Notes under the pieces: model-generated
What the model was told of the DNA's origin: nothing
Seen by the model: the letters and a program-made list of their open reading frames with translations, nothing else
Database searches by the model: none
NCBI GenBank assembly: GCA_030145325.1
Contig: JAQYVW010000009.1
Coordinates: forward strand, 473 to 64,472
Reading direction: 5' to 3'
DNA: 64,000 bases
Source: Desulfurivibrionaceae bacterium
GTDB taxonomy: Bacteria > Desulfobacterota > Desulfobulbia > Desulfobulbales > UBA5123
Position numbers and translations under genes: made by a program
In this document: piece after piece, positions 30,579 to 54,497 of the stretch
How positions within the stretch are numbered: the first letter of the stretch is position 1
Layout of the letters: each line of letters begins with the position of its first letter

Positions 30579-33436
30579 AAAAGGACGGTGCCCCCAACAT
30601 CAAGAAATCAATTTTCTTTCCCCTGGCCATCGTTCTGCTCACCCTATCTATCCTCTCTCTATCCGGACTCTTCTGGCTCCAAGAAACCCATATCCATAAT
30701 CAGATCAGGCAAAAGTTAGACAGCGTCCCTAAACTTCTCGATGTACTGGTGGGTGAAGAAGAAACCATCATCAAGGGACTATTTGTCCGCTTTGAACACT
30801 CCCCTGAGCTACAAAAAGCTTTTCTTAACGGCGACCGGAAGCAATTATTAGCTTCATCCCGGCCAATCTTTAAAGAATTTCTGGCCGCTCACGACATAAC
30901 CCACTTTTATTTCATTGACCGAGAAGGAAGATGTTTTCTTCGCGTCCATAACCCCGACCGCGAGGGTGACACCATAAACCGATGGTCATTTAATACCGCC
31001 CGCCAGTCTCAAAAGATCTCATCCGGCATCGAACTGGGGCCGTTGGGCACCCTTACTCTGCGGGTAGTCGCTCCCTGGCGCGTCAACGACAAGATAATCG
31101 GCTACCTTGAACTGGGTAAAGAAACCACCCTGCTCCTCCCCATGCTTAAAGACGCCTTAAATGTAGAATTGCTCTTTGCCGTTCGCAAAAACTTATTGAA
31201 CCATGATCAATGGCAGGAAGGACGCCGGATGATGGGCTACAGCGACAACTGGGAGGAATTAAGCAATCATGTCATCATCGCCTCCACCCGCCCAGATACG
31301 CCCAGCGACATCGACCCTTTTCTCCAACAAGAACACACCAGCCATAACAATTTCATCATCAGCACAACCATGGGTGATCTCCACTACGATGGAGGATTCA
31401 TCTCCCTTAAGGAAAGTTCTGGCCGTGAGATCGGCGAGATAATCGTTCTTCTAAATTTTAACGCCGAACGTCTTACCCTGCGCCACCTTTACCTATCTCT
31501 GGCCTTAGTCATTCTTACGGCCGGAATTATCCTTTCGATCCTTTTTTACCATTATCTCAACGGCATTGACGCCAGACTGAGTCTGGCTAGCAATCGTCTC
31601 AAGGAAGAGTTGCAAGAGCGCAAACTCACCGAAAAAGCTCTGGCCAGAGCGAAAATAGCTGCCGAAACCGCCAATCGGGCCAAGAGTCAATTTCTCGCCA
31701 GTATGAGCCACGAAATCCGCACCCCCATGAACGGCATCATCGGCATGACCGATCTGGCTCTCGCCACCGACCTCCAACCAGAACAACGTCACTACCTTGC
31801 CATTGTCCAAAACTCGGCAACCTCGCTACTGGGAATTATCAATGACATCCTTGATTTTTCAAAGATTGAGGCCGGCCAGCTGGTTCTGAGCAAAGAACCT
31901 TTCGACCTCCTTGAGGTGATTGAAAACACCCTGCAAACCGTAGCCACCCGGGGCCAGCAGAAAGGACTGGAACTCCTCTATCACCTCTCGCCCGAAGTTC
32001 CGACTATCCTTCGCGGCGATGGGATGCGTCTCCGCCAAATTCTCCTTAATCTGGTGGGCAACGCCATCAAGTTCACCAATGACGGCTATATCTTAATCAA
32101 GGTGGAAACAACCCACGATAGCGAGCACAGAGTCTTACTCCACCTCTCCGTTACGGACACCGGCATCGGCATCCCGAAAAGCAAACAACTCAACATCTTC
32201 AACAGTTTCACTCAGGCTGATGACTCTATTGCCCGCCTATACGGCGGCACCGGCTTGGGTCTAAGTATCTGCTGCAAGTTGGCAGGAATGATGGACGGCG
32301 AACTCTGGGTTGACAGCAAGACGGACAAGGGCAGCACCTTTCATGTTTCCGCCCAATTCGACAAGATCAATAAGGCTGCAGAGGAGACCCCGGAACAAGC
32401 CGCCCCGCCAACGACCTCCACCATCCTGCTCATTGATAATCTTGAGCTCAGCCGCAAAATTCTCCAGGAATTTCTATGTCACCACCACCTGCCCACCGAT
32501 ACCGCGGCTGACAGCAAAACGGCCCTCAAGGCATTACAAGGAGAAGGCAATCAATACCAGATCATCTTAATCAATCTAGCCAATCAGGGAGAAGAGAGTC
32601 CAGGGATCCTTGATAGCCTGGCGGCAGCCAAATTCACCACCATCCCGCTCATTGTCATGAGCGCCGCCGAATCTCTTGATCAACAAAGACGCTATCCAAA
32701 CCTTGCCATTCACTGGGTCTTGCCTAAACCGGTGGCACGGCGCGATCTGATGACTTTAATCAAAGCCACCCTGTCCCCGGAGAACCATTCGCTGTTGCTA
32801 GCCCCCTCTTCTTCCCCAAACCTCGACATCATGACCACCACGAACTCGCCCCTCAACCTCCTACTGGTAGAAGATAATGAAATAAACCGAGAACTTGCCC
32901 AAATCGTCCTCAAACGAGGTGGGCATCGTGTCACCTCGGCGACTAACGGCGTGGAAGCATTGCAAGAACTTGCCAGCCATGGTTTCGATGCCATCCTGAT
33001 GGATATTCAGATGCCGAAAATGGACGGTTTAACGGCCAGCAGAATCATTCGCCAGTGTGAAAAAGGGGCAGTAGGGGAAGGAAAAGATTCCGCATTAATC
33101 AAGAGGGTACGCAGAAAGCTCAAGGGATCCAAGACCCCGATCATCGCCATGACCGCCCACGCCATGGCCGGTGCCCAGGATCAGTGCCTTGAGGCCGGAA
33201 TGGATCATTACGTCACCAAACCATTCCAAGCTCGAGAAGTGCTGGCCGTTTTACAGGAAGTAAGCAGTGGCAAAAAGCATATCCCCCCCCCAGAGTCTCG
33301 CCGTTGGCCGCATCGAGAAATGAACCACTTCCCACAGACAAACCCACCACCATCTCTCGCGCCAAGGTCAGAGAGCACATTAGTAACTCCTACCACATGG
33401 ACTCAAAAAAAATCAGCCATCTCCTGGATTCATTGA
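30566..33436 (+). CDS. Hybrid sensor histidine kinase (periplasmic PDC/Cache-like sensor, HisKA, HATPase, two receiver-like domains); its 3' end is probably frameshifted
   Basis: The H-box is [11 protein letters not shown], with N/G boxes ([15 protein letters not shown]). There is a degenerate first REC and a canonical second REC ([10 protein letters not shown]...DIQMPKMDG...TKP). The last ~48 codons after the C9 run at 33283-33291 read as low-complexity junk. Confidence 0.85.
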
Positions 33437-37700: not shown

Positions 37701-38044
37701 CTTGCCTCATTTATCGTAATCCTGACAATACAGAATTGTAATTGTACCATGAAGTAGTAGATGGTGAAACGGTTAAACAGCAAGTAAACTCTCAGCCTGA
37801 CCACCATTACCCTAGGTACTAGCATCATATTGATTGCCAATAAAATCAGCCACAAGGCAAATCAAACAATATTGTCTTTTATTATCATGCGCTCTTTAAT
37901 TATCGGTATAAAATATAAATTTAATTGAACTATTCACCTTTCCATGTCTAATATATGCCCTACAAGGTTAAAGGACACCACCAGGGTGATAGTACCACCA
38001 CTACAACATCCCCGGAACATGATGTTTGGATATCGAGACAGAAA

Positions 38045-38199
38045 TTAACTAGTGTCTGTCCATAAATGAGGATTTTTGTCGTAGATTAAGGATTGCGAAA
38101 AAAATAAGCACAGGCATATACATGATATTCCGAGCATTATTTTTTTCGCATGACGCAGAGATACGGCAAAAAGACCATTTATGGACAGGCACTAACTAA
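38045..38199. mobile_element. Family-B 155-bp near-perfect palindromic element (REPIN/MITE-like)
   Basis: The left arm TTAACTAGTGTCTGTCCATAAATGAGGATTTTTGTCGTA (38045-38083) matches the reverse complement of ATACGGCAAAAAGACCATTTATGGACAGGCACTAACTAA (38161-38199). An inner pair, TGCGAAAAAAATAA / TTATTTTTTTCGCA, is also present. A solo arm occurs at 63191-63227. Confidence 0.6.
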
Positions 38200-38279
38200 A
38201 TTGACCACAAAGCATGACCATCGCCGACCTTACGGATTCTTCTGTATTTAAAAGACGTTAAACCTTTTTATAAATAGCC

Positions 38280-39572
38280 ATGCAGCCAAAAGATATCAAA
38301 CCAATCATTAAACCATTTTCTATCCCGGAAAAGTCAGATTTCGACATCCTCATTGTCGACGATGAATTCGTTAACCGGTTCCTGCTTAAGGATATTCTGG
38401 AACAGGACGGTTATCGAACCCACGAGGCAAACAATGGCACCGAGGCCCTTGCCGCTGCCATCAACAACAAAACGGATCTGATTCTGATGGATATCATGAT
38501 GCCGGACATGGATGGCTATGAAACCTGCCGACGGTTGAAGGAAGACCCGTGCACCGCCAACATCCCGGTTATCTTCGTTACCGCCCTCACCGATACTGAA
38601 AATTTGGTCAAGGGATTCTCCGTCGGCGCTGAAGACTACCTGGGCAAACCAATTAAGGACGGTGAGGTAAAGGCCAGGGTGCAAACACACCTGAAACTGA
38701 AAGCCGCCATGGACAAGATCTCTCACTATAATGAAGAACTGGAACAGGTGGTGGCGGAAAGCTCCAAAGAGTTGATCCGCACTGAACGGCAAGCCGCCTT
38801 TGGACAACTCATCCAGGGAATCGTCCATAATCTCAAAGGACCGCTGACCACCATTCGGGGCAGTGCCCAGGCCTGCCGGGCCACGCTGCGGATGATTCGT
38901 ACCGAAATAGACGAGGCCGGAGAAACTCCCTTGCCCGACAACCCCAAAATCACCAAACTTACTGACGGGGCAATAAAGGCCATTGATCTTTCCGAAACCG
39001 CTTCCACTCGCCTCACGGAAATGATCAACTCACTGATGTCAAAAAGCAGCGCCGACCAGGCCAGCAAGCCGGAACGTCTTGACTTAAATACCATTGTCCG
39101 CTCGGAACTGAACTTCATGGAAGGTGATCTGCATTTCAAACACCATATCAAAAAGAATATCGAACTAACCCCTTCTCCGCTCCCGATCATGGCCATTGCC
39201 CCGGAAATAGCCCAGGTTTTCAATAATATAATCGGCAACGCCATTGATGCCATGCATGGCAATGTTGACCAGGCAATATCCATCTCCACAACGAAAAAAA
39301 ACCGGTATGCCAGTCTGTCGATTTCCGATACCGGCAACGGCATTGCCCCTGATAACCTTAACCGAATCTTCGACCCCTTTTTCACCACCAAACCGAAACA
39401 CAACAACGATACACCTCAAAAAAAGGGACCAATCGGCACCGGCTTAGGCCTTTACATGTGTATGCGATCAATAAAAACTATTAATGGCGACATTGTGGTT
39501 GAAAGTAAACCTGGCTCAGGCACGACCTTCAAAATTAAAATACCGCTGGCCGAGCCCATAGATATTTCGTGA
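38280..39572 (+). CDS. Receiver-histidine kinase fusion (REC-HisKA-HATPase)
   Basis: The N-terminal REC contains ILIVDDE...DIMMPDMDG...GKP. The H-box is IVHNLKGPL, followed by N/G boxes (IGNAIDAM, DTGNGI, GTGLGL). It is the first gene of the chemosensory cluster. Confidence 0.85.
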   Translation: MQPKDIKPIIKPFSIPEKSDFDILIVDDEFVNRFLLKDILEQDGYRTHEANNGTEALAAAINNKTDLILMDIMMPDMDGYETCRRLKEDPCTANIPVIFVTALTDTENLVKGFSVGAEDYLGKPIKDGEVKARVQTHLKLKAAMDKISHYNEELEQVVAESSKELIRTERQAAFGQLIQGIVHNLKGPLTTIRGSAQACRATLRMIRTEIDEAGETPLPDNPKITKLTDGAIKAIDLSETASTRLTEMINSLMSKSSADQASKPERLDLNTIVRSELNFMEGDLHFKHHIKKNIELTPSPLPIMAIAPEIAQVFNNIIGNAIDAMHGNVDQAISISTTKKNRYASLSISDTGNGIAPDNLNRIFDPFFTTKPKHNNDTPQKKGPIGTGLGLYMCMRSIKTINGDIVVESKPGSGTTFKIKIPLAEPIDIS

Positions 39573-40228: not shown

Positions 40229-42553
40229 ATGAGCAGCGAAATGGATCTTGATGCCCTGCATGGCTTTCTCGATGAGTCAAGCGACTCCATGCAAGGCATT
40301 GAAGCAGACTTTATCGATCTCGAAAGAGATCCGACCAATATGGAGATCATCAACCGGATATTCCGCCCCATTCACAGCCTGAAAGGGAACTCCGGCTTCT
40401 TCGGCCTAACCAACATCAACAAATTCGCCCACCGCTTGGAAAACCTTCTCGACACCGTCAGACGAGGTGAACTTGCGATCACCAAAGAGATCATCGACAC
40501 CCTTCTCATCGGTGCAGATTTTCTTCGCCAAATGGTGGAACGGGTCTATGAGGACCCCACCGACGTCCTTTTGCGTGACAACGAAGAAGAGTTTTTAGGC
40601 AAGGTCGAACAATTCAAACCGGAAAAACCAACCGGCTCAATTGAGAGCATCCTGACCCTTGAAAAACTCGTCAACGAGGCGATGGATCACGGCATCTCCC
40701 CCACGGACAACACGTTAATCAGTACCCTGCTGGGAAAAATCGAAAAAGCCAACCAAGAAATCAAGCTCATCCTCAGTGACGTCAAAAACGCCGACTCCAC
40801 TGCCAAGCGATCCACCGCCGCCGCTTATATGATTGGTGATGAGGATCACTCCGCAGTGGTCAAACCGCTGCTTGATGTTGCAAGCCAAATGGACAAAAGA
40901 GCAACGGTTGACCGCCAACTCCTAGCTGAGTTCGAAAAATCCCTGGTCACCCTGAACGAGCTTCTTAAAGACGACAGTGACGCCGCCCATGAGTTAGAAG
41001 AACTGCAATCCATGAGCAACTTTCTTGACGATGAATTACTCATCACCAGCCAAGAATTCACCTCATCGACCACAGCATCCATTGATGCCGTTCTGAGCAA
41101 ATTCGACATCGTCAAAACCGAAAGCAAAGATATCGAAGCTGAATCATTTGGCAAGCTCGGAGAAATCCTTATCTCCCAAGACAAGGTCTCACCGGAACAA
41201 CTCACCGATGCGCTTAAAAAACAGAAGAAAGTTGGTGAAATACTGGTGGACGATGGCATTCTCAAGGACCAAGACCTCAAGGAAGCATTAACCATCCAGC
41301 AAAAAAATGCCTTGGCAGAGCATACCAAAAATGAACCTGTTGCTCGCGAAGTTAAAAAAACCATCCGTATCGATCAAGACAAGCTGGACAGTTTTGCCAA
41401 CTTCGTCGGCGAGCTGTTTATCAATATCGATTCTTTCAGCTTCCTGAAAAAGCAATTGGAAGAAACCGACGTCGACTTTGACCTCATGGCCCGCTTCACC
41501 AATACCATCACCTCCCTTGACGAGATGGTGGACACCCTGCAAGAAAGCATCATGGGGATCAGAAAGGTGCCCATCGACACCCTATTCAAACGCTTCCCCC
41601 GCGTAATCCGCCAACTAGCAGGCTCACTGAACAAGGATATCAACTTCAAAATCGTTGGCGAAGATACCGTCATCGACAAAGATCTGCTGGAAAAAATCGA
41701 GAATCCACTGGTCCATATGCTGCGAAATTCGGTGGATCATGGCATCGAAACGCCCGAAGAACGAACCAACAACAACAAGTCTGGCACCGGCACCTTGGAA
41801 CTGAAAGCGGCGGTGGATGAAAATTATGTTTATATCACCATCAACGATGACGGTAAGGGCATTGACCCGCAGATCATCAAGAAAGTGGCGCTGAAGAAAG
41901 AGCTCATCACCCCGGAAGAAGCTGAACAGATGCCAGACAAGGAGTTGATCAACCTCATCTTCAAACCGGGCTTCAGTTTAGCCGAAAAAATCAGCGATGT
42001 CTCAGGACGCGGCGTCGGCATGGATGTGGTGCAGTCGGTATTAAAAGAAACCAGCGGCACGGTGGAGGTAAACTCGGTAATTGACCAAGGCACTAAGGTT
42101 ACGATTAAGATTCCGTTAACCAAAACCCTGGTTGCCAAGGAGGCAATGATTGTTTCCGCTTATGAGCGAACACTGGCCATCCCCTCCGAGGATATTACCG
42201 CCACCATTGAAGCTAAGGACGAGGAAGCAACAAGACTTTTTTCCGGCGACAATTGTATCCAATACCACGGCGCGATTTATCAAGTCATCGATCTTGGCGC
42301 TTTCCTATTCCCCAAAACCATCCGCCAGCGACAAGATGCAGACCGGCATGTTATTATTGTCAGTGAAAAACATAACATCGCCCTATTAGTTGACGAAGTA
42401 TTGAGCCACCAAAAAATTGTCGTCAAAAACTTCACCGGCGGGTACAAAGCTTTAGACAGGGTCCGAGGCATCAACGGCTTTACAATCTTGGGTAACGAGG
42501 ATATTATCCTCATTGCCGATGTACAAAATATTACCGCCCACGCTGTTGATTAA
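40229..42553 (+). CDS. cheA: CheA-type histidine kinase 1 (Hpt, MshEN-like motif pair, dimerisation, HATPase, CheW-like)
   Basis: It has Hpt (FRPIHSLKGNSGFFGL), a P3 region (IRIDQDKLDSFANFVGEL), a kinase core (HMLRNSVDHGIE, DDGKGID, GRGVGMDVV) and a C-terminal CheW-like domain. The LGEILI.../VGEILV... tandem motif lies at aa 309-358. Confidence 0.9.
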   Translation: MSSEMDLDALHGFLDESSDSMQGIEADFIDLERDPTNMEIINRIFRPIHSLKGNSGFFGLTNINKFAHRLENLLDTVRRGELAITKEIIDTLLIGADFLRQMVERVYEDPTDVLLRDNEEEFLGKVEQFKPEKPTGSIESILTLEKLVNEAMDHGISPTDNTLISTLLGKIEKANQEIKLILSDVKNADSTAKRSTAAAYMIGDEDHSAVVKPLLDVASQMDKRATVDRQLLAEFEKSLVTLNELLKDDSDAAHELEELQSMSNFLDDELLITSQEFTSSTTASIDAVLSKFDIVKTESKDIEAESFGKLGEILISQDKVSPEQLTDALKKQKKVGEILVDDGILKDQDLKEALTIQQKNALAEHTKNEPVAREVKKTIRIDQDKLDSFANFVGELFINIDSFSFLKKQLEETDVDFDLMARFTNTITSLDEMVDTLQESIMGIRKVPIDTLFKRFPRVIRQLAGSLNKDINFKIVGEDTVIDKDLLEKIENPLVHMLRNSVDHGIETPEERTNNNKSGTGTLELKAAVDENYVYITINDDGKGIDPQIIKKVALKKELITPEEAEQMPDKELINLIFKPGFSLAEKISDVSGRGVGMDVVQSVLKETSGTVEVNSVIDQGTKVTIKIPLTKTLVAKEAMIVSAYERTLAIPSEDITATIEAKDEEATRLFSGDNCIQYHGAIYQVIDLGAFLFPKTIRQRQDADRHVIIVSEKHNIALLVDEVLSHQKIVVKNFTGGYKALDRVRGINGFTILGNEDIILIADVQNITAHAVD

Positions 42554-42733: not shown

Positions 42734-44047
42734 ATGGGAACAATGGAATCAGATATTTTCAAGGAAGAAGCTTATGATCTTCTTGATGATATAGAAGAAG
42801 CACTCCTTGAATTACGTGACAACCCCGCTGACAGCGAACTAATTAACCGCCTATTCCGCGCCTTTCATACCATCAAGGGATCGGGGGCCATGTTCGGCTT
42901 CAAAGAGGTGTCAAAATTCACCCATGAGGTGGAAACCGCCATCGACAAAATCCGCGAAGGGACCGGGGTGGTGCCGGACGCACTGCGCGAAGTCCTTCTC
43001 ACCGCTCGCGACCAGATCCTCGCCATGATCGAGACGGAAGACCCTGACGCCCCAGAGATTCAGGAAGCGGCACAACTCATCCTCAAGCAACTGGCGCCTG
43101 CTGTCTCAGCAAAAGAAGCGCCACCCGTACAGCAGCCCCCCACCCCCAAGCCTGAACCTGCCGCCGCCCCGCCCGTTATTGCCACGGAAATGCCGACAGT
43201 CCCAAAAACAGAGCCCAAAATCAATAAAGATCCGGACCCTGAAACGCAAGCGCTGCTAACCGAACTTGCAGAACTACTCAATGAAGTTCGAGACTTGTTA
43301 CAAAAACTGCACGAAGAACCCGGCGCCAATAAACTTTGCAAAAAGCTCCACCGATCAATTCATACCGTTGCCGGCACAGCGGCCATGTATGACATGGAAG
43401 CCCTTGCCGAATTCAGCAACAAACTTACCGATATCACTGCCACCATCAAACAAGCTGAAGAACCAGTCAATGATGAAGTGTTAAAAGTACTCACCGCAGC
43501 TATCGACCACTGCTTTTCCCTTCTCCGTTCCACCGACCCATCGGGGCAGGTTCTACAAAGACGCTCAGGCAAAATTACCACCGAACTTGAAGCAATGGTC
43601 AACAAAGACCAAACCAGTATCGGAACAGCGCCGGAAACTTTACGATTCCTTATTGTTGAAGACGAATTCATTAGCCGTTACCTTCTCCAAGAATTCCTGA
43701 CTCCATACGGTAATAGCCATGTTGCCATAGACGGTTACGAGGCTGTCTTGGCTTTTAAAAACGCCATTATCGAAAAGAAACCATACAATATCGTCTGTCT
43801 CGATATCATGATGCCGGGACTTGATGGTCGACAAGTGGCCAAAGAAATTCGCCGCCTGGAAAAAGAAATGGGCAACAACAATTTCTGCAAGATAGTAATG
43901 ACCACGGCTTTAGACGACGAAAGCATCAAGAACGAGTTATTGTCAGATAAACGGTGTGATGCCTATCTGACCAAACCCATACGATTTGAAGACCTTGACC
44001 AATTAATAAAATCATACTTTCCAGACTTCAATACGACAAATAGCTAA
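42734..44047 (+). CDS. Hpt-Hpt-REC phosphorelay protein
   Basis: It has two Hpt signatures (FRAFHTIKGSGAMFGF; HRSIHTVAGTAAMYDM) separated by a Pro-rich linker. A C-terminal receiver follows (FLIVEDEF...DIMMPGLDG...TKP). Confidence 0.85.
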   Translation: MGTMESDIFKEEAYDLLDDIEEALLELRDNPADSELINRLFRAFHTIKGSGAMFGFKEVSKFTHEVETAIDKIREGTGVVPDALREVLLTARDQILAMIETEDPDAPEIQEAAQLILKQLAPAVSAKEAPPVQQPPTPKPEPAAAPPVIATEMPTVPKTEPKINKDPDPETQALLTELAELLNEVRDLLQKLHEEPGANKLCKKLHRSIHTVAGTAAMYDMEALAEFSNKLTDITATIKQAEEPVNDEVLKVLTAAIDHCFSLLRSTDPSGQVLQRRSGKITTELEAMVNKDQTSIGTAPETLRFLIVEDEFISRYLLQEFLTPYGNSHVAIDGYEAVLAFKNAIIEKKPYNIVCLDIMMPGLDGRQVAKEIRRLEKEMGNNNFCKIVMTTALDDESIKNELLSDKRCDAYLTKPIRFEDLDQLIKSYFPDFNTTNS

Positions 44048-44190: not shown

Positions 44191-46500
44191 ATGTCCGACA
44201 AGCTGACGGATGAACAAGTAGAGATCATTGAAGAGTTCATTTGTGAAGTCCGCGACCTGATAGAGACTGCGGAGTCCGATATAATCGGTTTATCCTCCAT
44301 TTACAAAAACAATGAGTCCCAAACCTCAACCGAAAACCTAAAAACTCTTCACACCATCTTTCGTTGCTTCCATTCCATCAAGGGTGGCGCAGCCTTCCTG
44401 CAGTTCAACAATATGGTCACTTGCGCGCACAGCGCGGAAAATCTTCTCGATCTACTCCGAAATGATGAAATAACCCTTCTGCCAGGGCATATCGATCTGC
44501 TCTGCCAAGCCTGCGACTTCATCTCGATTGCTCTGGAACAACTTGAAACCAACCTCAATGATCACGAGCTCACAGAGCAAGCTAACGCCATCCACGATAA
44601 ATTTGAACGCGCCATCGCTGGTATCCCAGAACCGGAAGAATCCCCATCTGAGAACGAAAGCAATGACGACAGTTTATTAATCAATCTTGACCTCAACCCT
44701 TCTCAACTTATCAACCCGGACACACTTCACCATTTCATCGAGGAGTCCAGGGAACTTATTCAGAAAAGCGAAGCGGCTTTACTTGACTGGAGCAAAAACC
44801 CTAACGACTCCGACCCAGAACTAGTTGCGCAACTTTTTCGCAACATTCACAGCATTAAAGGCAACAGCGGTTTTCTCGGATTCTCCGACATGGAGCGCTT
44901 GGCCCACGGGATGGAGAACCTCCTTGATGCTGCCAGAGAAGGCGCCGCCATTAACCGCGGCAAAGCAGCAGAGACCCTCTTGGGGCTTGTAGACATAATC
45001 AGTCATGCCATGGAAGATATCGCCCAGGGAGAAGAATGTAAAATCAAAGGCATAGGCCTTCATCTCGAGGCATTGGCTGATCTTCTCCCCGACACCCCTT
45101 CCTCCAATGTACCGTTACCAAAACTTGGTGAAATTCTTGTCGATCAAGGCGTTGTCAGTGAAGACGCCCTGGAAAATGCCTTGGATGTCCAGAATAAACC
45201 TCTCGGTGAAATCCTGGTCGAAACCGGCGCAGCCACAGAAGAGCAAGTCGCGCAGGCCGTGCAAACTCAGAAGAAACAAGCAATCGTCCCAGGCAAGGCC
45301 ACAAAAACAACCGCTCGTCAGGACATCCGAGTTGACCTCGGCAAACTTGACAGTCTCATCAACCTCATCGGCGAAATGGTTATTGCTGAAAATATGTTGA
45401 TCAACAACCCTGATCTGCAAGATCTGGAATTGGAAAATTTCAACAAAGCCGGCCAGCACATGGACAAAATCATCCGTGAATTACAGGAAATGGCCATGTT
45501 TATCCGCATGGTGCCGGTGGCAGGCCTCTTTCGGCGCATGACCCGGCTGGTACATGATCTTTCCCGAAAATCCGGCAAAAAAGTTGACCTGCAACTGGTT
45601 GGAGAGACCACCGAGGTCGACAAAACGGTTATCGAATTAATTACTGACCCCCTGGTTCACCTTCTTCGCAACTCCATGGATCACGGCCTTGAGCCCCCAG
45701 AGGAACGCTTGCAAGCAGGCAAAAAAGATACCGGGATTCTACGTTTGTCCGCAACCCATGAAGAAGGCGAAGTCCTGATCACCATCACCGATGATGGGCG
45801 GGGGTTGAACAGAGAAAAAATCATCGCTAAAGCCATGGAAAAAGGTGTCCTTGACGATGATGGATCTCAGATGAGCGATTCAGATGTCTTTAACCTCATT
45901 TTCCTGCCCGGCTTTTCCACCGCCGACCAGGTTACCGATGTTTCTGGTCGCGGTGTTGGGATGGATGTGGTTCGCAAGAACCTTGAAAAGATCAAGGGCA
46001 AAATTGAAATTAAGAGCAAGCAAGGGGGCGGCACCACCATTATCTTGCGCATTCCGCTGACCCTGGCAATCATCGACGGGATGATGATCCGGGTGGGCAC
46101 TGCGCTATACATCGTGCCGCTTCTCTCAATCCGCGAATCATTCCGTCCCAGCCACGAATTGATTACCGTTTCTCCAGATGGTCAAGAACTGGCCAAGGTA
46201 CGCGAGAACCTGCTGCCGGTGGTGAGACTCCACGATCTTCACAAAATCAGCCCAGACTTCGATGAACTAGACAAAGGTATCCTCATTGTCCTTGAAGGCC
46301 AGGATCTTAATTTTTGCCTTTTTGTCGACGAAATCATGGGTCAGCAACAGACGGTTATCAAAGGTCTATCAGAATACATCTCCGTACTTGGCAATGTCGG
46401 CGGTGTTTCCGGCTGCACCATTCTCGGCAATGGCGATGTCTGCCTGATCCTTGATGTACATTCATTGGTGGATGTCGCTCTCAGCGATAACGAAGAGTGA
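44191..46500 (+). CDS. cheA: CheA-type histidine kinase 2 (two Hpt domains, MshEN-like motif pair, dimerisation, HATPase, CheW-like)
   Basis: It has Hpt1 (FRCFHSIKGGAAFLQF), Hpt2 (FRNIHSIKGNSGFLGF), a P3 region (IRVDLGKLDSLINLIGEM), a kinase core (HLLRNSMDHGLE, DDGRGL, GRGVGMDVV) and a CheW-like C-terminus. The tandem LGEILV motif lies at aa 311-360. Confidence 0.9.
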   Translation: MSDKLTDEQVEIIEEFICEVRDLIETAESDIIGLSSIYKNNESQTSTENLKTLHTIFRCFHSIKGGAAFLQFNNMVTCAHSAENLLDLLRNDEITLLPGHIDLLCQACDFISIALEQLETNLNDHELTEQANAIHDKFERAIAGIPEPEESPSENESNDDSLLINLDLNPSQLINPDTLHHFIEESRELIQKSEAALLDWSKNPNDSDPELVAQLFRNIHSIKGNSGFLGFSDMERLAHGMENLLDAAREGAAINRGKAAETLLGLVDIISHAMEDIAQGEECKIKGIGLHLEALADLLPDTPSSNVPLPKLGEILVDQGVVSEDALENALDVQNKPLGEILVETGAATEEQVAQAVQTQKKQAIVPGKATKTTARQDIRVDLGKLDSLINLIGEMVIAENMLINNPDLQDLELENFNKAGQHMDKIIRELQEMAMFIRMVPVAGLFRRMTRLVHDLSRKSGKKVDLQLVGETTEVDKTVIELITDPLVHLLRNSMDHGLEPPEERLQAGKKDTGILRLSATHEEGEVLITITDDGRGLNREKIIAKAMEKGVLDDDGSQMSDSDVFNLIFLPGFSTADQVTDVSGRGVGMDVVRKNLEKIKGKIEIKSKQGGGTTIILRIPLTLAIIDGMMIRVGTALYIVPLLSIRESFRPSHELITVSPDGQELAKVRENLLPVVRLHDLHKISPDFDELDKGILIVLEGQDLNFCLFVDEIMGQQQTVIKGLSEYISVLGNVGGVSGCTILGNGDVCLILDVHSLVDVALSDNEE

Positions 46501-46668
46501 TTCACCCGCATCGCACGTCCCTCCCCGCCCTCCACACTACAAAGCTGTAAACATCCCACGACTTTGTTAACAATTACGTAACACTCACCCCACACCTTTC
46601 TCGCTCGCCCCTTCACCCTACGTATAAAAAGTTCCTAATTACAACACAATGAGATGGCTGTTCCAGCC

Positions 46669-46685
46669 TGGCACATTTCGTGCAT
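46669..46685 (+). promoter_or_regulatory. Putative sigma-54 (-24/-12) promoter for MCP-1
   Basis: The sequence is TGGCACATTTCGTGCAT. GG and GC are separated by exactly 10 nt, as in the TGGCAC-N5-TTGCW consensus. It lies about 110 nt upstream of the MCP-1 ATG. Confidence 0.55.
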
Positions 46686-46794
46686 TTCCTTCTCAAGTTC
46701 GAGGAAGATGCTCAATCACCTTCACTGGTCTAAAAAATGGCATCGTCAAAACAAAAAAGCCATTACCGGCCTTTCATTTTATGGAGAACTATTA

Positions 46795-49737
46795 ATGTTC
46801 AAGAATCTTAAACTTACCAAAAAACTCCTTATTGCTTTTCTCGGCGTAGGGCTAATCCCTTTTGCTGCCGTTGGCCTTACCGCTCTACTTAAAGCCAGTA
46901 GCGCCCTTGATCAGTCGGCATTTAATCAATTGCAGTCGGTTCAGGCAATCAAGAAAGCTCAGATCCAACGCTTCTTCACCGAGCGTAAAGGCGACATGGC
47001 CGTGTTACTGAATACCACTGCCGCTTTTGACGATGAGGTAAGCAGTAAAATTTACGCCATCCAAAACAACAAGAAAGAAGCGCTGGAACTGATCAGCCAG
47101 CAATGGTTCACCGATATCAAGATCCAGCAAGGTCAGGACATTTCCAGCAAAGGTTTGCCGCACTTCCAAAATTATCTCAAAACAGGCAAGAAATCGGCGC
47201 AATACAAACACTACGCCACGCAAGTTTCGCAATTCATGAAGGCCACCGGCTACTACGATTACTTTGTCATCGACAAATCCGGCCTTTGCGTCTTCACCGA
47301 CGCCAAGGAGGCGGATTACAAAACAAACCTTCTTAACGGCCCCTACAAAGACTCCGGCCTTGGAGTCGCCACCAAACGCGCCTTCAATGGAGAAACAGCC
47401 ATTGAAGATTTCGCTTCCTATGCACCCTCAAACGGCGCCCCAGCTGCTTTTATTGCTGCCCCGATCCGAAGAGGGAAAAACATCATCGGGGTTGTCGCCC
47501 TGCAAATCCCCCATGAAAAGGTGCAAGCCATTGTTGCCGAACGCACCGGCCTCGGCATAAGCGGCGAGGCTTACCTTGTGGGCAGAAAGGACGGCAAAAC
47601 CGGCTATCGCAGCAATCGCGTCATCAAGAACGGCAAGCTCGGCCAGGATAAAAATGGTGCCGACATCAACAAGGCGCTGGTAGGCGAAGCAGGGGTTCGC
47701 TTCAAGAAGGGCAGCACCGGCGACATGGAACTGGTCGCCTATACACCGGTTAAGATCCCCGGCCTTGACTGGGCTTTAATCACCTCCATGAGTCTCGAAG
47801 AGGCCATGGCTCACAAAGAAAAAGGCGATAAAGAGGATTACTTTGCAAAATACGTCAGGCAATACGGCTACTACGACCTCTTCCTGATTGAACCGGAAGG
47901 CAAGGTTTATTACTCGGTGACCCATGAGGCCGATTACGATACCAATATGATTAATGGCAAGTACGCCGATTCCGGGCTCGGTAAACTGGTCCGCCGGGTT
48001 ATTCAGGAAAAGAAATACGGGGTAGCAGACTTCGCCCCCTATGCACCCAGCAACAACGAACCAGCCGCTTTCATCGCCGCTCCTGTTTTTCGCAACGGCG
48101 AACTCCAACAGATCGTCGCCCTGCAACTGTCACTGGAGGCGATCAACAACATCATGCAGCAGCGTGAAGGGATGGGCGAAACCGGCGAGACTTATCTGGT
48201 TGGCCCGGACAAACTTATGCGTTCGGACTCCTTCCTTGACCCCACCAATCATTCGGTCAAAGCCTCGTTTGCCAACCCAACCACCGGCAGTGTCAACACC
48301 GAGGCCGCCCGCGAAGCACTGGCCGGACAGTCCGATTCTAAAATCATCATCGACTATAACGGCAATCCGGTTCTTTCCGCCTACACCCCACTGAAGGTTG
48401 GCGACAGCACCTGGGCAGTCATCGCCGAAATTGATGAAGCAGAGGCCTTTGCGGCCATCAACACCTTGAAATGGGTAATAGGTATCGTCTTTGTCGTCGG
48501 CATGGCCGCCATTATCGTCGTTGCCCTGACCATCACCCGTTCCATCACTCAGCCGGTGAGCAAAACCGTCCTCATGCTTGACGAGATGGCCAAGGGTCAC
48601 CTGGACAACCGACTAAACATGGATCGAGGCGACGAGATCGGCCAGATGGCTAAGACCATGGACTCTTTTGCCGATAGTTTGCAAAACGAAATGGTGGCAG
48701 CGCTGAACAAGCTGGCTGACGGCGACCTAACCTTTGATGCCAATCCACACGATGAGAATGACACCATCAGAAACTCGCTGAAAAAAACCGGTGACGACCT
48801 GAACAAACTGATCTCCGAAATCCTCACCGCCACCGAACAGATCGCCAGCGGTTCCGGCCAGGTTTCCGATTCCAGCCAGGCCCTCTCCCAAGGGGCGACA
48901 GAACAGGCGGCATCACTTGAGCAGATCACCAGCTCCATGACCGAGATGGGCTCACAAACCAGATTAAACGCCGAGAACGCCACCCAGGCCAATCAGTTAG
49001 CCAGCCAGACCAGGAGTGCAGCAGAAAGCGGCAATACGAAAATGCAGGAGATGGTCTCGGCCATGGGTGAAATCAACGAGGCGGGCCAAAGCATCTCCAA
49101 GATCATCAAGGTTATTGATGAGATTGCCTTTCAGACCAACCTACTGGCCTTGAACGCGGCAGTGGAAGCGGCCCGGGCCGGGCGTCATGGCAAGGGTTTT
49201 GCGGTGGTTGCAGAAGAGGTACGCAACCTGGCTGCCCGTAGCGCCAAGGCAGCTAAAGAAACCGCAGAGCTCATCGAAAGCTCGGTGGAAAAAACCAAGA
49301 ACGGCACCCAAATCGCCGAGGCGACCAGCGAGGCACTGGCCGAAATAGTCGGCTCGGTCACCAAGGTCACCGATCTTGTCGGCGAAATCGCTGCCGCTTC
49401 TAATGAGCAGGCGCAAGGAATCAACCAGACAAATCAGGCCTTGGGCCAGATCGATCAGGTAACCCAGCAGAACACCGCCAGCGCCGAAGAGAGCGCCGCT
49501 GCCTCGGAAGAGCTTTCCGGCCAGGCCATGCACATGAAAGAGATGATGAGCCGCTTCCGGGTCCGCGACATGGGCCAAGGAGGGATGCGCCAGCAACCCA
49601 TGTCACGGCAACAAAACGGCTGGGGAAACGCAACGCAACAACCACTGCCGCAACCACAGGCCCCAGGCCATTTACCCCGCCCCTTTGCGCCAAGTGAAAT
49701 AATAACCTTGGACGACAAGGAATTCGGTAAATATTAA
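46795..49737 (+). CDS. Methyl-accepting chemotaxis protein 1 (duplicated double-Cache-like periplasmic sensor, HAMP, MA domain)
   Basis: I set the start at the ATG at 46795, which has a GGAG Shine-Dalgarno 8 nt upstream and aligns with the MF(K/S)..KL..KLLIAFL N-termini of the other two MCPs. The signalling hairpin is [21 protein letters not shown]. The ORF-track start at 46654 adds 47 non-homologous residues. Confidence 0.9.
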
Positions 49738-49762
49738 TCGCTATAATAGCGAATGTTTCCAA

Positions 49763-49797
49763 ATGGCGTCCCTAGGTTCAGGGACGCCATTTTTTTT
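49763..49797 (+). terminator. Rho-independent terminator after MCP-1
   Basis: ATGGCGTCCCT pairs with AGGGACGCCAT in an 11-bp stem with a 6-nt loop, followed by T7. Confidence 0.85.
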
Positions 49798-49931
49798 AAT
49801 TTTTTTCTATCAAATAACTACCCAAAAGCGTTCAACAAAAGTGTACACATCTATTCAATTTTGTTGAACATTCACCTTACGCCTAACAATGCACATATGC
49901 ACAACACCTTTAAATCATTGTAAAAAATAAT

Positions 49932-49960
49932 TTGACAGCTTTACAACAGTTACTGATAAT
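49932..49960 (+). promoter_or_regulatory. Putative sigma-70-type promoter of cheW-mcp cassette 1
   Basis: TTGACA (49932-49937), a 17-nt spacer, then GATAAT (49955-49960). The block is conserved in cassette 2. Confidence 0.55.
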
Positions 49961-50095
49961 AAAAATCCTAGGCATTCTCAGTTGGTAATATCATAAAACA
50001 CTGCCCCTTAACCCCATTTCCAAAAGACTCCTTTGGCAACCTCACTTTCGCAACAGGAATTGCTAAAATAGAGCATTTTAACAAGGAGAGAAGCT

Positions 50096-50602
50096 ATGGC
50101 TGAAGATCAAGTTGTCGACATGGAGGATGATCTCTACGACGACGAAGACACCATGAAGGACAAGTACCTCACCTTCCATCTGGCCGGTGAGGATTACGGC
50201 CTTGACATCGTTTTTGTCACCGAGATCATCGGCATCCAGAAAATCACCGAAGTGCCGGACATGCCTAACTTTGTTAAGGGGGTAATCAACCTACGCGGCA
50301 AGGTAATCCCGGTGATGGACGTACGGTTACGTTTCAACTTGCAGGAACGTGATTACGACGAACGCACCTGTATCGTAGTCGTTGATATTAACGGCACCGC
50401 CGTCGGCCTTGTTGTTGATCAGGTCAACGAGGTGGCCGATATCCCCGAGGCACAGGTCGAGCCGCCCCCACGCACCACCAAGGGGACGACCAGCCGCTTC
50501 TTAAAGGGCATGGGCAAGGTGGATGAAGAAGTCCGCATCCTGCTCAATGTCGACAAGCTGCTCTACGACGAAGAAATGGAAATGCTTGCTGGTGCGGCGT
50601 AA
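50096..50602 (+). CDS. cheW: CheW coupling protein (copy 1)
   Basis: It is a 168-aa canonical CheW domain with an acidic N-terminal extension (MAEDQVVDMEDDLYDDED). Confidence 0.9.
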   Translation: MAEDQVVDMEDDLYDDEDTMKDKYLTFHLAGEDYGLDIVFVTEIIGIQKITEVPDMPNFVKGVINLRGKVIPVMDVRLRFNLQERDYDERTCIVVVDINGTAVGLVVDQVNEVADIPEAQVEPPPRTTKGTTSRFLKGMGKVDEEVRILLNVDKLLYDEEMEMLAGAA

Positions 50603-50648
50603 TCTTTCCTGAGAAAAAATCACAACATAACAAATAACGAGGTGAACA

Positions 50649-53588
50649 ATGTTTAGTAGACTTAAATTGGGCCAAAAACTTCTTATCGCCTTCCTCTGCG
50701 TCGGGGTTATCCCCTTTGCGGTGGTCGGCCTAAGTTCGCTGATCAAGGCCAGTAATGCCTTGGAGTATGCAGCCTTCAACCAGCTGAACGCCGTTCAGGG
50801 AATCAAAAAGAAACAGATTGAAAATTTCTTCAACGAGCGCAAAGGCGACATGACGGTTTTGCTTGATACCATTGAAACATTTGTCGATGAAAACGCCGAC
50901 AAAATGTTGGCCATCCAGAAGAACAAGAAGGAAGCCATTGAAGAGATTGGTGAGCAATGGATCTTGGATGTTGAAGGAATGTCCGACGATGATCTTCTCA
51001 GCGAAGGCATAGATCACTGTAAGCAATTTATTAAAACCGGCAAAAAAACCGCAGCATATCGTGAATTTTCCCTTGAAGTTGATACGTTTACCAAAAGGTC
51101 CGGCTATTACGATTTCTTCGTCATCGACACAACGGGTCTTTGTGTCTACAGCACTGCCAAAGAAGCGGACTACAAATCAAATCTCCTCACCGGTCCCTAC
51201 AAAAATAGCGGCCTGGGCCACGCCACCCGCAACGCCATGCAGGGCAAGACTTACATTGATGACTTTTCCCCCTACGCCCCTTCAAACGGTGAGCAGTCTG
51301 CTTTTATTGCCGCCCCGATTAAAGATGGCGACAAGATTGTCGGGGTTGTAGCTTTACAGATCCCCACCGACGAGATTCAAGCCATCACGGCTGACCGCAC
51401 CGGCCTTGGTCACAGCGGCGAAGCGTACCTGATCGGCACTCTTGACGGCCAGATCGCGATGCGCTCCAATCGGACCGTCAAGAGTGACAAAATCGGCGAC
51501 GCAAAAAAAGGACAAGATATCGACAAGGCCATGGCTGGCGAAACCGGTTGGATGTTCAAGAAGGGCAGCAGCGGCGCCATGGAGATGAGTACCTATACCC
51601 CTCTTGAGATCCCCGGTCTTAAATGGGCGATGGTCACCTCCATGAGCCTAGAGGAGGCAATAGCCAAAAAAGAAGAAGGCGCTAGCGAGGATTACTTCTC
51701 TCGTTATATCCAGCAGTACGGCTATTACGATCTCTTCCTCATTGAACCGGGTGGGCAAGCGTATTACACGGTGAGCAAGGAGGCGGATTACAAAACCAAC
51801 ATGGTAAACGGAAAATACGCCGACTCGAACTTGGGCGAACTGGTCCGGCAGGTCCTGCAAACCAGGCAGTACGGGGTGGCCGATTTCGCCCCTTACGCAC
51901 CCTCAAACAACGAACCCTGCGCTTTTATCGCTGCTCCGATCATCCACCAAGGCAAGGTGGAACAGGTCATCGCCATGCAGTTGTCGCTTGAAGCGATCAA
52001 CTCCATCATGCAACAACGCGACGGGATGGGCGAAACCGGAGAAACCTACTTGGTCGGCCCTGATAAGTTGATGCGTTCCGATTCCTTTCTTGACCCCACC
52101 AACCATTCGGTCAAGGCCTCCTTTGCCAACCCGGCCACCGGTAGCGTTGACACCGAGGCCGCCCGCGAGGCCCTGGCAGGCAGGAACGATGCCAAGATCA
52201 TTATTGATTACAACGGCCAACCGGTTCTTTCCGACTATGCACCGCTGAAGATCGGTGACAAAACCTGGGCAGTCATCGCCGAGATCGATGAGGCCGAGGC
52301 CTTTGCCGCCGTCAACTCCTTGAAATGGGTAATAGGCATCGTCTTTGTCATCGGCCTCGGTGCCATTATATCCGTAGCGTTGATGATCACCCGCTCCATT
52401 ACCCAACCGGTAACCAAAACCGTGCACATGCTTGAGGAGATGGCCAAGGGCCACCTGAATATCCGCCTCAACATGGACCGTGCCGATGAAATCGGCCAGA
52501 TGGCCAAAACCATGGACGCCTTTGCCGACAGCCTGCAGAACGAGATGGTGGCGGCGCTCAACAAACTGGCCGCTGGCGATCTCACCTTTGACGCCACCCC
52601 CCATGATGAAGCCGACGCGATTAGAAACTCTCTGAAGAAGACCGGAGACGATCTCAATACCCTGATCAGCGACATCCTCACCGCCACCGAACAGGTGGCC
52701 AGCGGTTCTGGCCAGGTCTCAGACTCCAGCCAATCCCTCTCTCAAGGTGCCACCGAACAGGCGGCCTCCCTGGAAGAGATCACCAGTTCAATGACCGAGA
52801 TGGGCTCACAGACCAAGTTGAATGCCGAAAATGCCACCCAGGCCAACCAATTGGCAGGCCAAACCAAAACTGCGGCTGAAGGCGGCAACGCCAAAATGCA
52901 GGAGATGGTCACCGCCATGGGCGAGATCAACGAGGCAGGGCAAAACATCTCGAAGATCATCAAGGTTATCGACGAGATCGCCTTCCAGACCAACCTGTTG
53001 GCCTTAAACGCAGCGGTGGAAGCCGCCCGCGCCGGTCGCCATGGCAAGGGCTTTGCCGTGGTCGCCGAAGAGGTCCGCAATCTCGCCGCTCGTAGCGCCA
53101 AAGCGGCCAAGGAAACCGCCGAGCTCATCGAGGGCTCGGTGGAAAAAACCAAGAACGGTACCAAAATCGCCGAAGCAACCAGCGATGCATTGGCCGAAAT
53201 CGTTACCTCGGTCACCAAGGTGACGGACCTGGTCGGTGAGATCGCCGCCGCCTCCAACGAGCAGGCGCAGGGGATCAACCAGACCAATCAGGCCTTGGGC
53301 CAGATCGATCAAGTGACCCAGCAGAACACCGCCAGCGCTGAAGAGAGTGCGGCGGCCTCGGAAGAACTATCCGGGCAGGCCATGAACATGAAAGAAATGA
53401 TGAGCCGCTTCACGGTTCGTGATATGGGCAGCGGCTCTGGCCGTCAGCAAGCCTCCCTGCCGAGTCCAACTCAATCCACGCCACAAAACGGCTCTTGGGG
53501 AGGAGGCCAGCAAACAGCCGCGAGAAAATCCGCTCCGGCCCCCAGCGACCTCATCGCCCTTGACGACAAGGAGTTCGGCAAGTACTAA
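50649..53588 (+). CDS. Methyl-accepting chemotaxis protein 2 (duplicated double-Cache-like sensor, HAMP, MA domain)
   Basis: It is a full-length paralogue of MCP-1 with the same architecture and the same C-terminal LDDKEFGKY tail. Confidence 0.9.
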
Positions 53589-53611
53589 CAACGTAAAAAT
53601 ATCATAAAAAA

Positions 53612-53650
53612 ATGGCGTCCCTGGTTTTCCCAGGTGACGCCATTTTTTTT
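53612..53650 (+). terminator. Rho-independent terminator after MCP-2
   Basis: ATGGCGTCCCTGG pairs with CCAGGTGACGCCAT (one bulge), followed by T8. It is homologous to the MCP-1 terminator. Confidence 0.85.
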
Positions 53651-53780
53651 ACTATTTCTATCGACCTACCACAAGAAGGCAGTTCAACAGATTTGAACAT
53701 ATGTTCTCAGTTTTGTTTAACATTTCACAAGACCTAACCACAAGCACACCCACACCTTCAACATAATTACAAAAAATAAT

Positions 53781-53810
53781 TTGACACCTTCATGTACGTC
53801 TGCTGATAAT
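53781..53810 (+). promoter_or_regulatory. Putative sigma-70-type promoter of cheW-mcp cassette 2
   Basis: TTGACA (53781-53786), a 17-18-nt spacer, then (T)GATAAT. It is a paralogous copy of the 49932 promoter block. Confidence 0.55.
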
Positions 53811-53944
53811 AAAAACTCTAGGCATTATCAGTTGGCAATATAGTAAGATCCTAATCCTTATCACCATCACAAAATGTTCTTTTGCAACTACACCTCCGCA
53901 AGAGGAATTGCAAAAACAGAACACTTTAAACCAGGAGAGAAGCA

Positions 53945-54451
53945 ATGGCAGAAGATCAAGTTGTCGACATGGAGGATGACCTCTACGACGACGAAGACAC
54001 CATGAAGGACAAGTACCTCACCTTTCACCTGGCCGGTGAGGATTACGGCATCGACATCGCCTTTGTCACTGAGATTATCGGTATCCAAAAGATTACCGAA
54101 GTTCCGGACATGCCTGACTTTGTCAAGGGGGTAATCAACCTGCGCGGCAAGGTGATCCCGGTGATGGATGTGCGCTTGCGCTTTCATCTGGATGAGCGCG
54201 ATTACGACGAACGCACCTGTATCGTGGTGGTTGATATCAACGGCACTGCTGTCGGTTTGGTGGTTGATCAGGTTAACGAAGTAGCCGACATCCCGGAAGC
54301 GGATGTGGAGCCGCCGCCCCGCACCACCAAGGGTAGCAGCAGCCGCTATCTAAAAGGAATGGGCAAGGTGGAAGAACAAGTCCGCATCCTCCTGAATGTG
54401 GACAAACTACTCTACGACGAAGAAATTGAACAAATCGTCGCGGCAGCTTAA
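53945..54451 (+). CDS. cheW: CheW coupling protein (copy 2)
   Basis: It is 168 aa. By my manual alignment it differs from copy 1 at 16 positions. Confidence 0.9.
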   Translation: MAEDQVVDMEDDLYDDEDTMKDKYLTFHLAGEDYGIDIAFVTEIIGIQKITEVPDMPDFVKGVINLRGKVIPVMDVRLRFHLDERDYDERTCIVVVDINGTAVGLVVDQVNEVADIPEADVEPPPRTTKGSSSRYLKGMGKVEEQVRILLNVDKLLYDEEIEQIVAAA

Positions 54452-54497
54452 TCAATCGCCACAACAACACTTTATAAAACTAAAATGAGGTATTCAT

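Follow-up and report, generated by a model that had tools for sequence, protein, structure and literature searches.

A kinase-less protein with two Hpt domains and a receiver, encoded between two cheA genes of a Desulfurivibrionaceae bacterium

Histidine kinases of the CheA family are defined by their HATPase_c and CheW domains (PMC10782961). Among CheAs that carry two or more histidine phosphotransfer (Hpt) domains, 93% belong to the ACF or Tfp classes, and more than 90% carry a C-terminal receiver whose usual role is that of a phosphate sink (Berry et al., PMC10782961). For ChpA the receiver has been proposed to act as a phosphate sink and/or source for some of the Hpt domains (PMC10782961). 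Separate Hpt genes can complement a CheA, and CheA4 of Rhodobacter (Cereibacter) sphaeroides phosphorylates the P1 domain of CheA3 in trans (PMC10782961; PMC6829392). In the Che3 pathway of R. centenum, a CheA phosphorylates the receiver of a receiver-histidine kinase (REC-HK) protein, which in turn phosphorylates CheY (PMC3868531). Many chemosensory pathways have more than one CheA and additional phosphotransfer domains, and phosphate routing is known for few of them, such as those of R. sphaeroides, ChpA and R. centenum Che3. Here we describe a gene from such a setting, located in a 64,000-nucleotide stretch of contig JAQYVW010000009.1 of a Desulfurivibrionaceae bacterium (the window). Its product, termed HHR, consists of two Hpt domains followed by a receiver, and probably serves as a phosphotransfer partner of the chemotaxis kinase encoded immediately downstream.

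42734-44047, plus strand: gene for the Hpt-Hpt-REC protein HHR, 437 amino acids (aa), ATG start; defined from the open reading frame (ORF) listing, the translation, Pfam and 12 full-length orthologues
42740-43105, plus strand: Hpt1 (aa 3-124), a five-helix bundle of the CheA P1 type; defined from AlphaFold2 (AF2) helices, conserved residues and PDB sequence matches
43106-43237, plus strand: Pro/Ala-rich flexible linker (aa 125-168); predicted local distance difference test score (pLDDT) below 50 for aa 126-166, with 29% mean pairwise identity and indels among orthologues
43238-43600, plus strand: Hpt2 (aa 169-289), a diverged duplicate of Hpt1; defined from Pfam and five AF2 helices with pLDDT of ~80-90
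43640-44017, plus strand: receiver (aa 303-428); Pfam Response_reg 54.2 bits, conserved active-site residues

The translation of HHR is free of internal stops and is the sole long ORF at 42734-44047, the opposite strand being closed by many stop codons. An alternative start at Met4 (42743), which affects no domain, is the start in half of the orthologues. Pfam assigns Hpt to two stretches of the protein (87.1 bits, E = 9.5e-25) and Response_reg to residues 306-425 (cutoff 30.2 bits). An AF2 model based on the 12 orthologues, with a mean pLDDT of 77, places five helices at aa 3-124 and five at aa 169-289, a disordered stretch at aa 126-166 and a (beta-alpha)5 receiver at aa 303-428. Both His45 and His210 are the 12th residue of helix 2 in their own bundle, and the linker between the bundles contains the Pro-rich stretch EAPPVQQPPTPKPEPAAAPPV at aa ~127-147, as had been quoted earlier from the translation.

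A Pfam scan at E <= 0.01 found no P3 (H-kinase_dim), P4 (HATPase_c) or P5 (CheW-like) domain in HHR; both neighbouring kinases carry all three. Having no core domains, HHR is not a CheA histidine kinase, and phosphate can therefore only be received, passed on or lost by it. An earlier note on this DNA, made from the sequence alone, had described a stand-alone ORF between the two cheA genes with an Hpt domain, a Pro-rich linker, an atypical second Hpt with HTVAG in its core and a C-terminal receiver, and had argued that a protein with no kinase core could only relay or sink phosphate. The ORF listing, translation, Pfam matches and AF2 model agree with this description throughout, the HTVAG lying at aa 210-214. 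HHR is thus a real and conserved signalling protein of small size, able to carry phosphate but not to generate it, and it comprises one complete P1, one degenerate P1 copy and one relay-type receiver with all catalytic residues.

Hpt1 has the hallmarks of a CheA P1 domain. Its phospho-acceptor His45 (codon 42866-42868) stands together with Lys48, His64 and Glu67 in the motif HTIKG...FTHEVE; among 21 family members H45 and E67 never vary, and conservation of K48 and H64 is 90% or higher. Helices are predicted at residues 3-29, 34-53, 57-75, 82-100 and 107-124. In the PDB, the sequences that match best are those of CheA P1 domains (1tqg, E = 1.9e-14; 1i5n, E = 2e-13), and the alignment with 1tqg, the P1 of T. 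maritima CheA, extends along the whole domain. A further match is chain 3kyi (E = 1.4e-7), which we take to be the P1 domain of R. sphaeroides CheA3. In P1 domains the Lys at His+3, the His at His+19 and the Glu at His+22 assist phosphorylation of the acceptor His by the CheA ATP-binding domain, and to our knowledge generic Hpt domains lack a pair of the His64/Glu67 type. By its fold, by the position of its His on helix 2 and by its Lys, His and Glu residues, Hpt1 belongs to the Hpt family (PF01627) and to its CheA P1 subtype.

The receiver likewise retains its active site. Its phospho-acceptor Asp357 is encoded at 43802-43804; E309, D310, D357 and K414 are invariant in 21 sequences, and T390/T391 and K414-P415 are either fully conserved or conserved at 90% or more. 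The modeled five strands and five helices are those of a PF00072 domain, and a Foldseek search of the PDB with the whole HHR model returned matches mostly to the receiver. The closest solved structures are receivers of hybrid kinases that exchange phosphate with Hpt domains, D1 of GacS (phmmer E = 3.6e-11, Foldseek TM-score 0.82-0.84) and R1 of Sln1 (E = 5.9e-9, TM-score 0.82-0.88), whereas CheY proteins match with E-values of just ~1e-5 to 1e-4. On these comparisons the receiver is of the hybrid-kinase or phosphorelay type and not of the motor-binding CheY type. Free-standing receivers in the che clusters of two related loci, L003 and L005, score 133 and 127 bits with a hidden Markov model (HMM) of the HHR receiver. 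In both clusters (L003 13353-14161, L005 19652-20529) a small generic Hpt gene (118 and 128 aa, with HALKG and HAFKG) precedes the receiver gene, so receivers of this type are habitually paired with Hpt domains. The window holds no gene pair of this kind.

The genes that surround HHR in the window include two kinases and a set of receptors and adaptors.

38280-39572, plus strand: REC-HisKA-HATPase hybrid kinase, first gene of the upstream module; Pfam; syntenic in L001, L005, L090 and L092
39794-40225, plus strand: single-domain CheY-like response regulator, 143 aa; Pfam Response_reg 92 bits; syntenic in L001, L005, L090 and L092
40229-42553, plus strand: CheA1, 774 aa, with a single P1 (HSLKG at aa 49), P3, P4 and P5; Pfam; orthologues upstream of HHR in L001, L005, L090 and L092, not in L093
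44191-46500, plus strand: CheA2, 769 aa, with two canonical P1 domains (HSIKG at aa 61 and 220), P3, P4 and P5, no receiver; Pfam
46654-56678, plus strand: receptor and adaptor genes, comprising a methyl-accepting chemotaxis protein (MCP) at 46654-49737, CheW at 50096-50602, MCP at 50649-53588, CheW at 53945-54451 and MCP at 54498-56678; Pfam

Both kinases are complete, with Hpt, H-kinase_dim, HATPase_c and CheW domains and intact N, G1, F and G2 boxes. HHR is separated from its neighbors by 180 nucleotides (nt) upstream and 143 nt downstream; neither gap has a terminator-like site, and promoter-like and terminator-like sites around the gene occur at chance frequency. A CheA2-type kinase lies directly downstream of HHR in all seven loci (the window, L001, L005, L089, L090, L092 and L093), in each case with two P1 domains and no receiver, and the relatives share 58-80% identity with CheA2 of the window. 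Set against the presence of a receiver in over 90% of multi-Hpt CheAs, this architecture makes the CheA2-type kinase unusual in its own right. The HHR and CheA2 genes jointly encode four Hpt domains, a single kinase core and a single receiver. The adjacent gene repairs the exception, and the pair can therefore be viewed as a multi-Hpt CheA-receiver design divided between two proteins. The locus shows a compact, conserved solution in which a two-P1, receiver-less kinase always comes with a P1-(P1')-receiver protein encoded separately.

On balance we think it probable that HHR is functional, a phosphotransfer protein without a kinase that descends from a CheA P1 domain and works with the CheA2-type kinase immediately downstream. 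It most likely drains or reroutes phosphate from that kinase. Hpt1 would be phosphorylated in trans on His45 by the ATP-binding domain of a CheA dimer, with Lys48, His64 and Glu67 taking part, and the phosphoryl group would then move to Asp357 of the receiver tethered on the same chain, as the invariant catalytic residues of both domains suggest. Because this receiver is of the phosphorelay and not of the CheY type, it would serve as a sink, buffer or branch point that diverts phosphate from the flow between CheA and CheY. Hpt2, which lacks the kinase-assist residues, would for that reason be phosphorylated only by a receiver or provide a docking surface, and at most it would swap phosphate with receiver domains or dock them. 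The scanned ORFs of the window contained no CheB, CheR, CheD, CheC, CheX, CheZ or further Hpt, and the absence of CheZ, CheC and CheX among them was counted in favor of a sink.

Several points weigh against this proposal. All of its phosphotransfer steps are deduced from sequence, from which the rate of receiver autodephosphorylation cannot be read. The AF2 model has a predicted TM-score (pTM) of 0.37 and no confident packing between domains, and so is silent on how the domains of HHR are arranged. Since CheA1 and CheA2 have P1 domains of their own, HHR is not needed to complete a kinase. CheX is encoded close by in L005 and L006, and the case for a sink in place of a phosphatase is weaker for it. 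Finally, relatives of HHR with a single Hpt domain occur beside hybrid kinases, a sigma-54 regulator and flagellar genes, and the family is therefore not strictly tied to CheA.

These relatives form the larger part of the family. A search of 5.8 billion proteins yielded 12-13 full-length orthologues (412-437 aa, 45-75% identity) from metagenome-assembled genomes (MAGs) labeled Desulfobulbaceae, and also ~30 shorter relatives of ~265-330 aa labeled Desulfobulbaceae, Desulfurivibrionaceae or Thermodesulfobacteriota. The shorter proteins have the order Hpt-linker-REC, and in the alignment exactly the Hpt2 segment is missing from them. An exhaustive HMMER search of 1.84 billion cluster representatives gave no more than three 50%-identity clusters with the full Hpt-Hpt-REC arrangement (P0003, P0010 and P0013) and dozens of Hpt-REC clusters. 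The 124 proteins of 230-460 aa that were retrieved include 92 with the order Hpt-REC and 13 with Hpt-Hpt-REC, and all 13 fall in one clade, which makes Hpt-REC the core unit and the second Hpt a clade-specific addition. Judged by these sequences, the core family is a widespread Hpt-REC protein of ~300 aa, and the second Hpt is limited to one small Desulfobulbaceae-like clade. Family HMMs detected no second Hpt hidden in longer Hpt-X-REC proteins of ~390 aa. A profile search of genome contigs with the family alignment gave single-domain matches and no orthologues among the matches listed, and a metagenome scan with Hpt2 returned just the locus already known. No characterized stand-alone Hpt-REC protein was found in the literature searched, the coverage of which was incomplete.

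The distribution of the full-length form bears on whether HHR is a gene in its own right. Its CheA-like Hpt1 and its position among cheA genes would suit a pseudogene, or what is left of a longer CheA after a frameshift or truncation; a fragment of a frameshifted CheA was an outcome that the earlier note had set down as one that would overturn its view. This explanation is almost certainly incorrect: a free-standing form of 412-437 aa with its own stop codon and an intergenic gap recurs as a separate gene in seven loci at 45-75% identity, Pfam finds no trace of P3, P4 or P5 in it, and both flanking CheAs are complete. We therefore rejected the fragment hypothesis on the basis of orthologue synteny and the missing kinase-core remnants.

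The genes next to the single-Hpt relatives are more varied than those next to HHR, as seen in five loci.

L003: single-Hpt relative directly upstream of a CheA2-type kinase
L004: single-Hpt relative adjoining a hybrid kinase; a CheA2-type cluster lies a few kb off
L006: single-Hpt relative adjoining a hybrid kinase
L007: single-Hpt relative preceded by a sigma-54 regulator; cheR, cheB and a CheA2-type gene lie 4-6 kb downstream
L008: single-Hpt relative after fliE-fliJ

A CheA2-type kinase is thus adjacent or near in three of them (L003, L004 and L007). The hybrid kinases adjoining the relatives in L004 and L006 raise the alternative that HHR serves ordinary hybrid histidine kinases as a detached REC-Hpt relay unit, its receiver taking phosphate from a hybrid kinase or an Hpt domain and Hpt1 passing it on. 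The receiver is closest to those of hybrid kinases, and two large hybrid kinases encoded in the window (10174-13641 and 30566-33436) could each be an alternative phosphodonor for an Hpt-REC protein. We nevertheless regard this alternative as improbable, given that Hpt1 bears the CheA-specific His64/Glu67 pair in invariant or nearly invariant form and that a CheA2-type gene always follows HHR.

The second Hpt domain has a distinct history. Taken by itself (aa 166-289), Hpt2 passes the Pfam Hpt threshold (35.1 bits, cutoff 24.6, E = 1.6e-8), and its alignment with the protein's own Hpt1 runs from end to end, with 24% identity in 121 residues. An Hpt2 HMM gives up to 108 bits on the Hpt domains of single-Hpt relatives and 104 bits on Hpt1 of P0013. 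CheA P1 domains score ~77-91 bits, nearly all below the Hpt domains of the family, and both neighboring CheAs of the window score far lower. This ranking indicates that Hpt2 arose by internal duplication of the family's own Hpt. We rejected the candidate origin by borrowing from a neighboring CheA, the best matches being the protein's own Hpt1 and the Hpt domains of single-Hpt relatives.

The residues that assist phosphorylation by a CheA kinase domain have been lost from the duplicate. Hpt2 reads HTVAG...FSNKLT, with the Lys, His and Glu of CheA P1 replaced by Ala, Asn and Thr, and thus falls outside the P1 subtype. The Lys position varies among orthologues (A, E, G, S, Q or N), and the equivalent of Glu67 is kept solely in a deep branch formed by P0010 (FSYQVET) and P0011 (FCYQVES). 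His210 itself (codon 43361-43363, within HTVAG) is retained in 11 of the 12 orthologues; the other, P0009, has Arg there. Its codon, CGC, differs from CAC by a single transition and is present both in an NCBI MAG and in an independent assembly from a read archive. Phospho-acceptance by Hpt2 would therefore be dispensable in at least one lineage. Failure of the two histidines to be conserved in homologues had been set beforehand as a result that would count against the earlier note's view; the Hpt1 His is invariant, so the objection fails there, and for Hpt2 it applies only marginally, in one of 12 sequences. Other parts of the domain are maintained, since it is essentially without indels and R207, T211, M218 and Y219 are invariant, and from these comparisons Hpt2 is constrained, but loosely. 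Mean pairwise identity among orthologues is 0.70 for Hpt1, 0.42 for Hpt2, 0.72 for REC and 0.21-0.29 for the linkers. With 42% against 70% identity, Hpt2 is by this measure a fast-evolving internal duplicate and not an equal partner of Hpt1. The double-Hpt clade offers a natural series for studying what an extra Hpt does, from one Hpt domain to two with His and on to two in which the second His is lost, and the same question is faced with ChpA.

Loss of the acceptor His in P0009 would also suit a reading of HHR as a phosphorylation-independent scaffold or regulator resembling FimL, in which the Hpt folds just bind receivers or the kinase. Precomputed matches to PF27543 (FimL_C) fall on the Hpt2 region in P0001 and P0008 only and are faint where marked, and non-phosphorylated Hpt domains of ChpA have been proposed as protein-binding scaffolds (PMC12632253). 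However, the catalytic residues of Hpt1 and the receiver are conserved throughout the family, with K48 and H64 at 90% or above, which would be unexpected for a pure scaffold and renders this explanation very improbable for the protein as a whole. A scaffold role could apply to Hpt2 alone.

The retention of His210 in all other orthologues also bears on a more elaborate scheme, in which HHR is a four-step hub joining both CheAs. Phosphate would pass from CheA to Hpt1, to the receiver, to Hpt2 and then to a terminal regulator, either the upstream CheY or the receiver of the REC-HK protein, so that the signals of both kinases are integrated. We hold this to be possible, though we doubt it. Of the six loci with known upstream sequence, five (the window, L001, L005, L090 and L092) have HHR between CheA1 and CheA2, with the REC-HK, CheY and CheA1 genes forming a module upstream, and none of the five loci of single-Hpt relatives examined has this module beside it, such that Hpt2 and the module largely co-occur. 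The fold of Hpt2 is kept, with its invariant residues and its nearly invariant His. In addition, the ChpA receiver may pass phosphate to some Hpt domains (PMC10782961), and transfer from CheA through REC-HK to CheY is documented in R. centenum Che3 (PMC3868531).

Against a hub of this kind stands L093, whose orthologue (P0011) keeps Hpt2 but has a divergently oriented membrane kinase gene upstream in place of the CheA1 module. A strict link between Hpt2 and this module is weakened accordingly. The Arg found in both P0009 assemblies and the much faster evolution of Hpt2 relative to Hpt1 and REC also argue against the hub. Moreover, the three MCPs and two CheWs downstream are near-identical, and two separate input arrays are not indicated: the CheW proteins are 90% identical, and the MCPs share 86-89% identity in their C-terminal regions and 67-78% in their N-terminal sensor regions, so these genes are recent tandem duplicates. 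L093, the loose conservation of Hpt2 and the duplicate receptors and adaptors are the reasons that the relay is kept as a rival and not as the leading explanation. The earlier note had held that the position of the gene implies a relay linking the two CheAs. As worded, this view is not supported by the comparison of loci, in that the only constant neighbor is the CheA2-type kinase downstream, and the CheA1 module is missing from L093 and from beside the five single-Hpt relatives.

A bolder form of the idea has HHR as a free-standing His-Asp-His hub common to two different CheAs that share a receptor array. The kinases would charge Hpt1, the flow would be gated by the receiver, and Hpt2, reached only via the receiver, would feed the REC-HK/CheY branch. 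We consider this unlikely; were it true, separate proteins would form an internal relay like that of ChpA, and one chemoreceptor array would have two outputs.

Additional observations concern the kinases and the rest of the window. CheA2-type genes were located at L003 11012-13360, L004 1-2034 (minus strand), L005 11260-13569, L007 14762-17122, L089 1453-3834 and L093 2529-4850, and their P1 motifs take the form H[SG]xKG twice, ~155-165 residues apart. Between P1 and P3, at the P2 position, both CheAs of the window carry a tandem LGEILVxxGxxxxxxLxxALxxQ motif (CheA1 aa 309-357, 41153-41299; CheA2 aa 311-360, 45121-45270). The motif resembles the 24-residue c-di-GMP-binding motif of MshEN, with a spacer of 1-2 residues and not 5. 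The published MshEN pattern is matched twice in relaxed form and once in strict form by CheA2 and once in relaxed form by CheA1, and Pfam gives only a sub-threshold DUF4388 match on this stretch. CheA is among the MshEN-associated domains (Wang et al. 2016), and the motif hints at a possible c-di-GMP input to CheA1 and CheA2.

No sensor domain scored above the Pfam threshold in the ~330-620-aa regions N-terminal of the MCP HAMP domains. In related loci, cheR and cheB directly follow the CheA2 cluster (L005 and L089), and CheD, CheX and HDOD genes are nearby (L003, L005 and L006). A 422-aa 'Gate' (PF07670) gene is present upstream of the REC-HK gene in L001 (4030-5298), L090 (3979-5247) and L092 (945-2213), and in L001 and L090 it lies between a metallo-beta-lactamase-fold gene and the REC-HK gene. 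At the corresponding place the window has a 580-nt gap (37701-38279), the gene being absent or lost. Of the two large hybrid kinases of the window, one has a Tll0287-like domain, multiple PAS domains, HisKA, HATPase and REC, and the other has dCache_3, HisKA, HATPase and several REC stretches. The remainder of the window is chromosomal housekeeping (uvrB, lon, purine synthesis and the hybrid kinases), and an Rfam scan of the window gave zero matches.

HHR shares features with several described systems and differs from each. Like ChpA of Pseudomonas aeruginosa and other multi-Hpt CheA-receiver hybrids of the Tfp and ACF classes, HHR and CheA2 together have several Hpt domains, some of them degenerate, and one receiver. 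However, ChpA is a single polypeptide with its receiver C-terminal to the kinase core, whereas here the receiver and two of the Hpt domains are on a separate protein encoded upstream of the kinase. The parts are spread over two genes 143 nt apart (42734-44047 and 44191-46500), which places the pair outside that family, although HHR may work like its members. In the CheA3/CheA4 split kinase of R. (Cereibacter) sphaeroides, and in 'bipartite' CheAs with a separate Hpt gene, a P1 on a protein lacking the kinase domain is phosphorylated in trans by a neighboring CheA (PMC10782961; PMC6829392), as is proposed for HHR. The partner kinase in such systems has no P1 of its own, whereas CheA1 has one and CheA2 has two, so the locus is not a bipartite CheA; in addition, CheA3 of R. 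sphaeroides has a CheW-like P5 and a phosphatase region and no receiver, while HHR has a receiver.

A receiver tethered to P1 and acting mainly as a phosphate sink, again as proposed here, is found in the CheAs of H. pylori and C. jejuni and in FrzE of M. xanthus (PMC10782961), although in these CheA-CheY fusions the receiver is on a complete kinase and HHR has no kinase core. The relay receivers nearest to that of HHR in sequence and predicted structure are D1 of GacS, which acts with an Hpt domain, and R1 of Sln1, which acts with Ypd1. Hybrid and unorthodox kinase phosphorelays have the order REC-Hpt and HHR has Hpt-REC, with an Hpt1 of the CheA P1 type and no HisKA. The REC-HK, CheY and CheA1 genes of the window match the component set of R. 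centenum Che3 (CheS3, CheY3 and CheA3); CheA3 of R. centenum is a receiver-bearing hybrid and CheA1 is not, and Che3 has no Hpt-Hpt-REC protein. A modest practical gain from these comparisons is that such proteins can be annotated as kinase-less CheA P1-receiver partners in place of 'Hpt domain-containing protein'. Among the systems compared, HHR most resembles a hybrid CheA's P1 and receiver, detached into a protein of their own, and it is most likely an uncharacterized variation on this known theme and not a new type of system.

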